Of a DNA stretch of 56,778 bases, positions 32,140 to 44,966 are shown piece by piece; within the stretch, counting starts at the first letter, position 1, and each line of letters starts with the position of its first letter. The translations under genes and the position numbers were made by a program. This DNA is from an uncultured Candidatus Actinomarina sp. GTDB taxonomy: Bacteria > Actinomycetota > Acidimicrobiia > Actinomarinales > Actinomarinaceae. The notes under the pieces are model-generated. The model saw only the letters and a program-made list of their open reading frames with translations, ran no database searches and was not told where the DNA came from. The stretch covers positions 1 to 56,778 of the forward strand of contig CACFIX010000006.1 in assembly GCA_902566515.1 (NCBI GenBank). The letters are read 5' to 3'.

Positions 32140-32272
32140 ATAAAAAAACGAGCCACATCAGCTCGTTTTGATGAGGAACTTAATTGTCATTAAGACCACA
32201 TCCTACTCCACCTTACTTTCCTCAAAGCAGGTTGGCAGAATAATTTCTTATTCACTCCTGATGCTTAATTTA
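32140..32272 (-). ncRNA. Candidate structured leader/riboswitch or sRNA with intrinsic terminator
   Basis: GCAUCAG/CUGAUGU closing stem; GAAUAA-GAAA-UUAUUC and CUUAAU-GACA-AUUAAG GNRA hairpins; UGCUUU-GAGG-AAAGUA hairpin; terminator AAAACGAGC-7-GCUCGUUUUUUU. Confidence 0.65.
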
Positions 32273-42703: not shown

Positions 42704-43467
42704 TTCTTTAAGCGACGTTTAATCCACGCAATGTCTTTCTTTTGCGCTTCAAGTCCTCCGGGAGTTTCTACAACAATATCTGTTTTGCAGTTTTTAATGA
42801 CATATTCAAGTTCAGCTTTTGGAATCTGTCCTTTGCCTAAGTTTTCGTGACGATCCCTTGAGCTTTCAAAACCATCTTTTGAGTCATTGAAATGAATAAG
42901 GTCTATCTTTTTTACAAGTTTTTTAAATCCCTTTACTGCTTTTTCTGTAGGAATTCCCCCAGCCCATGTATGGCATGTATCGAGACAGAGTCCAACGTTT
43001 AAGTGGCCAATGACTTCCCAGAGTCTCTCAATGGAGTCCATGTATCTCGCAACGGAGTTTTTTCCACCAGCTGTGTTTTCTACTAGTACTCGCATTCCAG
43101 TATCTTCAACATGTTCTATAGCTTTTCTCCAGTTGTCATAACCAACACCAATGTCTCCACCTTCTCCAACAGACCCTCCATGAACTATGACTCCTTTGGC
43201 GCCAAAACTTGCGGCGACTTTACATGTGTCTTTTAATAATTTTCTGCTGGGATGACGTACTTTATTGTTTGGAGTAGCAACATTGATTAAATATGGTGCA
43301 TGGACATATATTGGTCCGTCATAATCTTGTAAAATATCGACATCTTCTCGAGGTTTTGGGCTTTTCCACATCTGTGGACTGGATATAAATATCTGAAAAG
43401 TATCACCTTTTCGGAGTTTTATTTCTTCAATTGCATTTTTTGAGGGTATATGAGCACCGATATTCAT
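42700..43467 (-). CDS. nfo: Endonuclease IV (AP endonuclease)
   Basis: IGAH, HAPYLIN, ENTAG, DTCH, HFNDSK, DRHENLG.G, ETP. Confidence 0.93.
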   Translation of the reverse strand: MNIGAHIPSKNAIEEIKLRKGDTFQIFISSPQMWKSPKPREDVDILQDYDGPIYVHAPYLINVATPNNKVRHPSRKLLKDTCKVAASFGAKGVIVHGGSVGEGGDIGVGYDNWRKAIEHVEDTGMRVLVENTAGGKNSVARYMDSIERLWEVIGHLNVGLCLDTCHTWAGGIPTEKAVKGFKKLVKKIDLIHFNDSKDGFESSRDRHENLGKGQIPKAELEYVIKNCKTDIVVETPGGLEAQKKDIAWIKRRLKK

Positions 43468-43539
43468 GAATTTAAGTATAAATCATCCTAATTTTTGCCC
43501 AAATGATAAAAATAAACGATAAAACACTAAAATAAGAGT

Positions 43540-43625
43540 AAGACTTCCTTTCGTGCTTTGAGCCACTTCAAAAGGACGATAAAACAAAAAATTACAGCCA
43601 CAGGGAGTCTTTTTGCGTTTTTTTT
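43540..43625 (+). ncRNA. Possible structured RNA
   Basis: AAGACUUCCU/AGGGAGUCUU closing stem (G-U on the + strand), inner UCGU/ACGA and UUUGAG/UUCAAA hairpin, U-rich tail. Confidence 0.35.
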
Positions 43626-43644
43626 GAGAAAAAGGTCATATAAA

Positions 43645-43728
43645 GTGAAAATCCCGATTGATCTTGCGACCCTTCGGGATTTTCGAACTATCTTTTATTA
43701 GGTCTTGCGACTTCATTTCTGATAGTTA
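43645..43728 (-). ncRNA. Candidate small RNA, copy 1 of tandem pair
   Basis: CUAUC-9 nt-GUC(GCAA)GAC-9 nt-GAUAG, then hairpin GAAAAUCCCGA-AG-GGUC(GCAA)GAUC-AA-UCGGGAUUUUC; promoter TTGCCA-17-TATTTT at 43761-43733. Confidence 0.65.
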
Positions 43729-43867
43729 TATAAAAATAGTGTATATTTGCTATTTTGGCAAGAAATTTGGGTTTGTTTTTTTCGCGAACTTTTATACATA
43801 AATTTTATAAAAATTTCACTGTGGAAAGCAAAAATCCCGATTGATCTTGCGACCCTTCGGGATTTTC
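43648..43867. repeat. Two identical 37-bp palindromic direct repeats (43648-43684 and 43831-43867)
   Basis: AAAATCCCGATTGATCTTGCGACCCTTCGGGATTTTC twice, offset 183 bp. Confidence 0.95.
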
Positions 43868-43913
43868 TGTTCTATCTTCTTTTCTATCTTTCGATTTCTT
43901 TTCCGATAGTGTT
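43826..43913 (-). ncRNA. Candidate small RNA, copy 2 of tandem pair
   Basis: CUAUC-9 nt-AUC(GAAA)GAU-9 nt-GAUAG, then the same 37-nt hairpin; promoter TTGCAT-17-TATATT at 43947-43919. Confidence 0.65.
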
Positions 43914-43976
43914 CTATAAATATACGTTAGTTTTTATTCTTATGCAAGATATTTACTAATGTATTTTTCGCGAGGT

Positions 43977-44204
43977 TTATTCCTCTTCTAAAGTGTTATC
44001 AGGCCTAAAGACTTCTTTAATTGAAACGATAATTTGAAAAAGTCCAAGAAAAAGAAGTAGATAATACAAATACTCTTCTCTAGTGTTTGTACCAAACTCT
44101 TTTAGGTCGAAGTAAGTTTTGAGAAATTCTCTGAACGGTCCATCAAGAATATTATCTAAGGCTAGATAGGTTAATGTCACTCCAAAAAGAAAAGGTCTTA
44201 TCAA
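43977..44204 (-). CDS. Small hypothetical 2-TM protein
   Basis: 75-aa ORF with TTG start and a purine-rich upstream stretch. Confidence 0.5.
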   Translation of the reverse strand: MIRPFLFGVTLTYLALDNILDGPFREFLKTYFDLKEFGTNTREEYLYYLLLFLGLFQIIVSIKEVFRPDNTLEEE

Positions 44205-44270
44205 TTTTTTCTCTCTTTATATTTTTTATCTTTAGGTATCAGAATAACCTAATTTAGCTATTGTTTTGGT

Positions 44271-44966
44271 ATGGAAATTGTACTTATACGTCATGGACAG
44301 CCTGCATGGATGCTAAACAATGAATATACAAGAAACCCTGGCCTCACTGAACTTGGAGTTATTCAGGCTAAAAAATCTGCTGAGCAGTTTCCAAAAGGTA
44401 GTATTGATCAGCTCTGGGTTTCTCCTTTAAATAGAACTACGCAGACACTTATACCCTTTGAAGAAAATAAAGTTGCAAAAGAGATAAAGACTTTCGAGTG
44501 GCTGAAAGAAATGGAAGATAAAGACGAGGTTGCATTGTATGGAAAAAGCACCGATGAGATAATGAGTTTTTTTGAAAAAAGGAATAGTCAAACGTTTGAA
44601 GAGTGGTCTGCTAGTAACCATGGAGTATATATGCAGGATTTTGCTAAGAACATAATCACCAATCTTGAAAAGGAATTAAAAAGCCTAGGGATTGTATGCA
44701 CAGATGATACCTTTGATAAGAAATTTGAAATAAAAAATGATTCTATAAAAAATTTAATGATAATTTCGCATGCAGGAACAATGTCTGTTTTGCTTTCATA
44801 TTTTTTAAATATGCCACTTTATGCATGGACATGGAAAAAATTCCTACCAAGACACACCGGTCATACAAGGTTGAAATCTACCGCAATATCAGACGGTCAC
44901 TTTTTTAGGCTTAAAGAGTTTAATAATGTGTCTTTTATAGAAAATCCAGAGGAGCAAACCTACTAA
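44271..44966 (+). CDS. Histidine phosphatase superfamily protein
   Basis: LIRHG, SPL.R..QT, L.E, SHAG. Confidence 0.88.
   Translation: MEIVLIRHGQPAWMLNNEYTRNPGLTELGVIQAKKSAEQFPKGSIDQLWVSPLNRTTQTLIPFEENKVAKEIKTFEWLKEMEDKDEVALYGKSTDEIMSFFEKRNSQTFEEWSASNHGVYMQDFAKNIITNLEKELKSLGIVCTDDTFDKKFEIKNDSIKNLMIISHAGTMSVLLSYFLNMPLYAWTWKKFLPRHTGHTRLKSTAISDGHFFRLKEFNNVSFIENPEEQTY

Follow-up and report, generated by a model that had tools for sequence, protein, structure and literature searches.

Bacterial small RNAs are in several cases encoded by sets of sibling genes, which are multi-copy and sometimes tandem, as for PrrF1/PrrF2, Qrr1-5, OmrA/OmrB, and LhrC1-5. Within the Actinobacteria, the 6C RNA (RF01066) has been reported to be chaperone-independent and to be linked to DNA replication and cell division. 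Cell-cycle and replication regulons that couple dnaA with ribonucleotide reductase are known from E. coli, where DnaA boxes control dnaA and nrd, as well as from Caulobacter, with CtrA/GcrA. To our knowledge, Candidatus Actinomarina, one of the most abundant bacteria of the surface ocean, has never been grown in culture. Its genome measures about 1.1 Mb, of which about 97% is coding; the median intergenic spacer is 2-3 bp long, and there are two sigma factors, as stated in passages of PMC7771536 and of the preprint 10.64898/2026.04.03.716425.

With respect to the sibling small RNAs, the two units described here, which lie on the minus strand of the window (the whole 56,778-nucleotide stretch of Candidatus Actinomarina DNA that was analyzed), show a similar organization, with several paralogous genes of about 80-100 nt per genome, a promoter and an intrinsic terminator for each (here predicted), one common upstream regulator site at the promoters, and some copies that are adjacent. 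They differ from these sibling genes in that no sequence or model similarity is seen, that Hfq was found in none of five genomes, and that the Actinomarina RNA is most conserved in GNRA hairpin tips and not in a single-stranded seed. The 6C RNA comes from the same phylum, has a similar size, and likewise combines hairpins with a terminator, but its model matches neither the region nor any of five genomes, and its loops are C-rich, whereas purine-rich loops and GNRA tips are found here. The 6S RNA (RF00013) resembles the units in its unpaired central bubble between helices; however, they have less than half its size (about 83 nt versus a rod of about 180 nt), show no match to its model, and do not have the bubble in all copies. 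As in the DnaA-box regulon of E. coli and the CtrA/GcrA regulons of Caulobacter, one short motif is common to dnaA and ribonucleotide reductase promoters. Unlike in the DnaA-box regulon, this motif, TCGCGAAAA, differs from the DnaA box, and small-RNA genes are the most numerous members of the putative regulon here.

As judged from sequence comparison, the units are two paralogous stand-alone small-RNA genes of an uncatalogued family that is confined to Candidatus Actinomarinales, and we consider it very probable that they are real small-RNA genes. What is new here is a putative promoter box that ties this RNA family to dnaA, nrdJ, and a whiB-family gene. Sequence inspection of the minus strand between 43645 and 43973 reveals two units of about 150 nt each with the same layout, for which a repeat finder gives start-to-start distances of 183 and 184 nt. 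Each unit has a TCGCGAAAAA box, 16 nt further on a TTGC-type -35, and, beyond a 17-nt spacer, a TAnnTT -10, after which come a two-hairpin RNA of about 83 nt and a U-tract. The individual features are as follows.

43964-43973, minus strand: upstream box of unit A, TCGCGAAAAA, its end 16 nt before the -35 (sequence).
43919-43947, minus strand: predicted promoter of unit A, -35 TTGCAT at 43942-43947, 17-nt spacer, -10 TATATT at 43919-43924 (sequence; conservation across copies).
43830-43912, minus strand: small RNA A, about 83 nt (covariance model match of 106.4 bits; MFE fold with z -5.6; covariation).
43872-43909, minus strand: hairpin 1 of RNA A, with a 5-bp stem, a 9x9 purine loop, and an AUC-GAAA-GAU cap (fold and covariation).
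43905-43909 and 43872-43876, minus strand: stem arms CUAUC/GAUAG of RNA A (sequence).
43886-43895, minus strand: cap AUC-GAAA-GAU of RNA A (sequence).
43831-43866, minus strand: terminator hairpin of RNA A, followed by the U-tract (sequence and fold).
43826-43831, minus strand: TTGCTT overlapping the U-tract of unit A, elsewhere the -35 of the next gene and here possibly vestigial (comparison with other loci).
43778-43787, minus strand: upstream box of unit B, TCGCGAAAAA (sequence).
43733-43761, minus strand: predicted promoter of unit B, -35 TTGCCA at 43756-43761, 17-nt spacer, -10 TATTTT at 43733-43738 (promoter scan with 9 of 12 matches; conservation across copies).
43647-43728, minus strand: small RNA B, about 82 nt (covariance model match of 98.6 bits; MFE fold with z -8.2).
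43687-43726, minus strand: hairpin 1 of RNA B, with an ACUAUC/GAUAGU stem and a GUC-GCAA-GAC cap (fold).
43702-43711, minus strand: cap GUC-GCAA-GAC of RNA B (sequence).
43648-43683, minus strand: terminator hairpin of RNA B (sequence and fold).

The RNA begins about 7 nt past the predicted -10, its first bases being ACACUAUC for unit A and ACUAUC for unit B, and the purine-rich loop strands of hairpin 1 are GGAAAAGAA / AGAAAAGAA in RNA A and AGAAAUGAA / CUAAUAAAA in RNA B. The terminator hairpin measures 36 nt and is the same in both units, with a 10-bp stem, then a 2x2 loop and GGUC-GCAA-GAUC, and a U run behind it. Its tip repeats the UCGCAAGA tetraloop motif of hairpin 1. Chance is excluded as an explanation for this repetition, since the 36-mer hairpin occurs exactly twice versus no match in 100 shuffles of the sequence, and TCGCGAAAAA is counted twice versus 0.06 expected. 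The promoter scanner reports the unit B promoter only, the TTGCAT of unit A being under its threshold. Beside the units, an ORF of 75 aa with no Pfam match (window 43977-44204, minus strand) ends 3 nt before the unit A box.

Folded as single sequences, RNA A has an MFE of -25.3 kcal/mol (z -5.6) and RNA B one of -30.7 kcal/mol (z -8.2), with none of 200 shuffles being as good, and RNAalifold independently yields the same structure when no structure is given beforehand. In alignments fitted to the covariance model, which brings some bias towards the structure, 94.1% of the cells are paired in a set of genome loci (129 hits, 70 distinct) versus 28-47% when the partners are slid, and 94.5% in a set of metagenome contigs (107 hits, 60 distinct) versus 27.5-47%. 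Compensatory changes are seen at 11 pairs in the genome-loci set, where the observed values are reached by 0-1 of 500 shuffles, and at 13 pairs in the metagenome-contig set, where none of 500 shuffles reaches them. The cap pair is seen as A-U, G-C, and U-A, and the terminator stem shows covariation in both sequence sets. In copies from the second genus of the order, the CUAUC/GAUAG stem is swapped for ACUUA/UAAGU or for a 10-bp ACUAGAUAAC/GUUAUCUAGU stem, and one of these copies is without the large internal loop, which means that the 9x9 loop is not universal. All distinct sequences, 70 of 70 in the genome-loci set and 60 of 60 in the metagenome-contig set, have the same terminator tip, its G·U pair and 2x2 loop included.

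Folding of the minus strand is more stable than that of the plus strand, and it is with the minus strand alone that the invariant G·U pairs and the GNRA loops agree. The RNA fold is under selection, on the minus strand. The original prediction had placed two minus-strand units of common layout here and had seen in them the mark of selection on RNA structure; all elements of that layout were found in their places, and covariation in two sequence sets backs the fold. A coding reading of the plus-strand ORFs of 47-70 aa that span the units was also considered, and it is excluded because the copies differ from one another by 1-2-nt indels.

A covariance model of the 83-nt RNA, built after alignment of 52 distinct units from 30 loci (BLAST of same-genus genomes), matches 59 of 65 Actinomarinales genomes, including all 12 of high quality, with 1-7 copies each; completeness is 71-87% in the six genomes that gave no match. 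The sole second-genus genome in the order carries two divergent copies, and the same search found the family in none of 115 genomes from other Acidimicrobiia families. In public collections, 86 stretches were found in genome contigs and at least 115 in metagenome contigs. A full RNA copy (91.5 bits) is also held by a contig of a MAG labelled as a Methanosarcinales archaeon (locus L086), which is probably a mis-binned Actinomarina contig.

Unit A shows 94-98% identity across species, and the RNA unit overall 80-98% DNA identity (BLAST), whereas for the first 200 residues of DnaA (loci L230-L259) most species of the genus have only 51-67% protein identity with the query, and the seven nearest have 77-93%. 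The RNA unit is thus more conserved between species than this N-terminal part of DnaA (51-93%). The internal-loop sequences differ between paralog types and are kept within a type across species. In the own genome of the window (an 837-kb assembly, 69% complete, 32% G+C), the 36-mer hairpin occurs twice even when up to 3 mismatches are allowed, which rules out a repeat of the REP/MITE type. Such a dispersed repeat with many copies, which the original prediction had itself raised, also does not agree with the relatives, where 1-7 copies are found and the hairpin always lies within a full unit.

A scan of the whole window against Rfam 15 at gathering score gave no match at either unit. Over 43300-44300 at E up to 10, it gave eight hits, all far under their thresholds and none on the minus-strand RNAs. 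The comparison, which included the 6S, 6C, and marine IMES models, thus found no family match at the RNAs, and this result, together with covariation and confinement to one order, agrees with the earlier claim of an undescribed small-RNA family. The sole Rfam match in the window is a SAM-I/IV riboswitch aptamer at 32170-32269 (minus strand, 54.9 bits, above the gathering score). As to the literature on small RNAs of Actinomarina, the RNA is not described in the available portion of PMC5069720, and the words sRNA, promoter, and riboswitch have no occurrence in the main texts, supplements aside, of PMC7771536 and the preprint 10.64898/2026.04.03.716425; a figure legend in PMC7771536 refers to a panel showing ncRNA locations. 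For TTCGCGAA as a promoter motif, nothing relevant was among the top matches listed.

The same-strand genes downstream of the RNA differ among 142 copy contexts, the counts of which are not independent because the contexts are drawn from overlapping collections, and they belong to at least four gene families: an unnamed lipoprotein-like gene (38 copies), a cytochrome P450 (28 copies), a 5'-3' exonuclease (18 copies), and nfo (Pfam AP_endonuc_2; 17 copies), which is the gene in this window. In relatives, two units are found 0.2-3 kb apart, with differing genes between and after them. The starts of the P450 and exonuclease genes lie only 26-43 nt past the terminator, and these genes have a TTGCTT-N17-TAAAGT promoter of their own, the -35 of which overlaps the U-tract of the RNA; this overlap explains the conservation of 'UUUUUGCUU' in A-type units. 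Such downstream promoters, together with the tandem arrangement here, favor stand-alone genes that are tightly packed in a streamlined genome, and some read-through into downstream genes may occur. With no constant downstream gene family and with tandem units in the window, the RNAs do not have the context of a riboswitch or of a leader of one gene family. They do have the intrinsic terminator (a 10+4-bp hairpin and U-tract) and the paralogs across species (1-7 copies, 59 of 65 genomes) of sibling small RNAs.

The 176-nt spacer between unit B and nfo (window 43468-43642) is strongly conserved across species and may hold an nfo promoter, TTGGGC-N16-TATACT, just before the ATG. A third RNA in this spacer was considered and rejected, since the folds of its two strands are no more stable than those of shuffles (z -0.63 and +0.80).

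Contigs assembled from four RNA-library runs of four studies, from which no start, end, strand, or level can be read, cover unit A in all four runs. Summed contig depth is highest over unit A, at 153-718 versus 20-109 in neighboring bins in one run and 32-102 versus 0-7.7 in another, where the nfo coding bins reach 39-75; since the unit is multi-copy and conserved across species, these depths sum over copies and species and are no evidence of transcription. The contigs also span promoter and box, as does a 151-nt contig at 43825-43974, and they break at the unit borders with differing loose ends (43809-43814 and 43977-43979). Unit B is without contig cover in two runs, which is uninformative.

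With respect to the promoters, 235 of 239 distinct full-length units have the box, and box, -35, and -10 are conserved across copies while the spacers vary freely, the pattern that a promoter with an adjoining factor site would leave. TCGCGA occurs eight times in the 837-kb own genome, and the four TCGCGAAAA sites found there are those of the two RNA units and a pair 20 bp apart in the rnpA-dnaA spacer. Across five relatives, 34 of 39 TCGCGAAAA sites fall at four promoter classes, with 18 at RNA genes, 9 upstream of dnaA, 5 upstream of nrdJ, and 2 upstream of a whiB-family gene, and the other 5 lie inside ORFs. The raw count of the 9-mer in these five genomes is not far above that of a reversed control (39 versus 20), so that the argument for a shared box stands on position and conservation and not on count.

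Upstream of nrdJ, the gene for a class II ribonucleotide reductase, the box is found in 30 of 30 loci (L163-L192) in the same layout as in the RNA genes, with box, 16-17 nt, TTGAAA, 17 nt, TATAGT, and then ACACTA; in the own genome, 69% complete, the nrdJ promoter is lost at a contig edge. The whiB-family gene, identified from its Pfam match, has the box upstream in 30 of 30 loci (L197-L226), about 10 bp nearer to the -35 than in the RNA and nrdJ promoters, and at E 1e-25 this gene was found neither in the own genome nor in 15 of 64 other genomes. Its promoter has a TAnnGT -10 at 6 nt before the ATG and the box 7 nt upstream of the -35, and the gene appears to be leaderless. For dnaA, two TCGCGA boxes exactly 20 bp apart are seen upstream in 30 of 30 loci (L230-L259; G000:C2:29262-29290 in the own genome, L132:1763-1792). 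Separate from these paired boxes and downstream of them, an invariant DnaA-box-like motif (TTTTTCACA / TTTTTCACACTC) precedes dnaA, and the region is probably the dnaA promoter and origin region.

In the upstream alignments the box columns are invariant and many of the surrounding columns are variable, other conserved blocks being the -35, the -10, NrdR-box-like palindromes at nrdJ, and the DnaA-box-like motif at dnaA. The box is displaced by whole helical turns, namely 20 bp between the paired dnaA sites and about 10 bp at whiB versus the RNA genes and nrdJ, as expected of a factor that has to bind from a single side of the helix. Of the known motifs considered as the identity of the TCGCGAAAA box (DnaA box, NrdR box, LexA, ClgR, and MtrA), none fits. 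The original prediction of a shared upstream regulator site has in this way been extended beyond the two units to the dnaA, nrdJ, and whiB-family promoters. Its presence at all of these suggests that the RNAs probably belong to a replication or cell-cycle promoter class, and we regard co-regulation through the shared box as likely.

Taken together, we favor, as probable on balance, a family of stand-alone small RNAs that would be coupled by the box to replication genes and would act in trans. Each RNA gene would have a sigma-70-type promoter behind the invariant TCGCGAAAA box and would yield an RNA of about 83 nt, with a first hairpin (short stem, symmetric purine-rich loop, and 3-bp GNRA cap) and a near-invariant intrinsic-terminator hairpin. 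The box is most likely the site of one putative DNA-binding factor, which would also act at the dnaA promoter with its two boxes 20 bp apart, as well as at the nrdJ and whiB-family promoters, so that the RNAs would be made together with replication and cell-cycle genes. They would probably act in trans, perhaps not by means of a long antisense seed but through a protein or RNA partner that reads both invariant UCGCAAGA hairpins, a step that we propose with low confidence. That 1-7 copies of a non-coding RNA gene are kept in such a compact genome argues for an important function. The shared box is a first testable handle, defining a four-member promoter class of dnaA, nrdJ, whiB, and the RNAs, the co-variation of which can be checked in ocean metatranscriptomes. 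As transcription factors are very few in this organism, the box can also serve as bait for its regulator.

CsrA, like Hfq, was found in none of five genomes. The parts of the RNA that are most invariant are the two UCGCAAGA-type tetraloop hairpins and not the loops, and together with the lack of an antisense signal this makes us lean towards recognition of the hairpins by a protein or RNA partner, which we hold as a tentative reading of the mode of action; the protein sponge that the original prediction had suggested would go in this direction and may apply. The close rival of partner recognition would be a classical base-pairing small RNA, in which the purine-rich loop strands serve as seeds for pyrimidine-rich mRNA segments and the paralog types have different targets. 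Base pairing is the usual mode of sibling small RNAs, the actinobacterial 6C RNA works without a chaperone, and the loop sequences, type-specific yet kept within a type across species, are in line with it. We nevertheless consider it rather unlikely, as an RNAduplex screen in which the two 5' domains were paired with 811 crudely defined start regions of the own genome gave best energies of -22.3 and -24.1, which do not surpass those of five shuffled controls (-23.6 to -29.0), a negative of weak weight because the screen is crude; as 24 RNA-leader pairs with the nrdJ, whiB, and dnaA leaders of four genomes give no signal (z -0.66 to +2.05); and as hairpin tips, not loops, are most invariant, with one second-genus copy being without the large loop. 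Partner recognition could take a more specific form. In the own genome, TCGCAAGA is found at 10 sites, 3 of them in the RNAs themselves, which by a rough estimate does not exceed the expectation from base composition. One of these sites lies in the helix-27 (900-loop) hairpin of the 16S rRNA, GGUCGCAAGAC (G000:C7, minus strand, about 5372), and 10-mers of this hairpin recur in the terminator tips of RNA A and RNA B and in the RNA B cap, a likeness that is not significant (E 0.36) and may be due to chance. That the two GGUCGCAAGA-type tetraloop hairpins act, helix-27-like, as decoys for a ribosome-assembly or RNA-binding factor, within a compact replication-coupled regulon of one factor with its CGCG-core box at dnaA, nrdJ, whiB, and 1-7 small-RNA genes, tying ribosome function to the replication cycle, seems improbable to us; if true, the smallest free-living bacteria would link ribosome function to the replication cycle through a compact regulon.

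The remaining explanations concern the nature of the units themselves. The short distance of 26-43 nt from terminator to P450 and exonuclease starts, and the fact that nfo and the exonuclease are DNA-metabolism genes in line with the other targets of the box, would suit a cis-acting role, with the unit as leader or attenuator of whichever gene lies downstream (nfo in this window, P450 or 5'-3' exonuclease at other loci) and its terminator as the point of regulated read-through. Against this stand the variety of downstream genes (38 lipoprotein-like, 28 P450, 18 exonuclease, and 17 nfo among the 142 copies), the tandem units here, the own TTGCTT-N17-TAAAGT promoter over the U-tract at the short-gap genes, the distance of 176 nt to nfo, and folds that show no evident alternative antiterminator pairing, and we judge a leader to be improbable. 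It is more improbable still that the units act as DNA, either by titrating the box-binding factor as decoys or by forming the recombination borders of gene cassettes that can be swapped, with the RNA being incidental: several box copies per genome, and the units 0.2-3 kb apart in relatives with different genes between and after them, would agree with such a role, but compensatory changes preserve RNA helices, the invariant G·U pairs and the GNRA loops are RNA features that are specific to one strand, and a terminator lies behind each unit. Lastly, the original prediction had thought of a miniature 6S-like promoter mimic that binds RNA polymerase via the open 9x9 loop. The loop is indeed symmetric and unpaired, and canonical 6S RNA was found in none of five genomes; however, hairpin 1 is far too small, with about 38 nt and a helix of 5-7 plus 3 bp versus the 187 positions of the 6S model, that model has no match in the region at E up to 10, and one family member is without the loop, which leaves this idea with very little credibility.

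A minor observation concerns the nrdJ leader, which opens, directly behind the predicted start, with two conserved NrdR-box-like palindromes (ACACTAnATTTAGTGT). All four relatives searched have an NrdR-like ATP-cone ORF (about 150-165 aa), and none was found in the incomplete own genome. The 5' end of the RNA, ACACUAU, together with the arms of its first stem, resembles such a NrdR-box-like palindrome split by an insert, a likeness which hints that the RNA genes may have arisen from a copy of the nrdJ promoter region.
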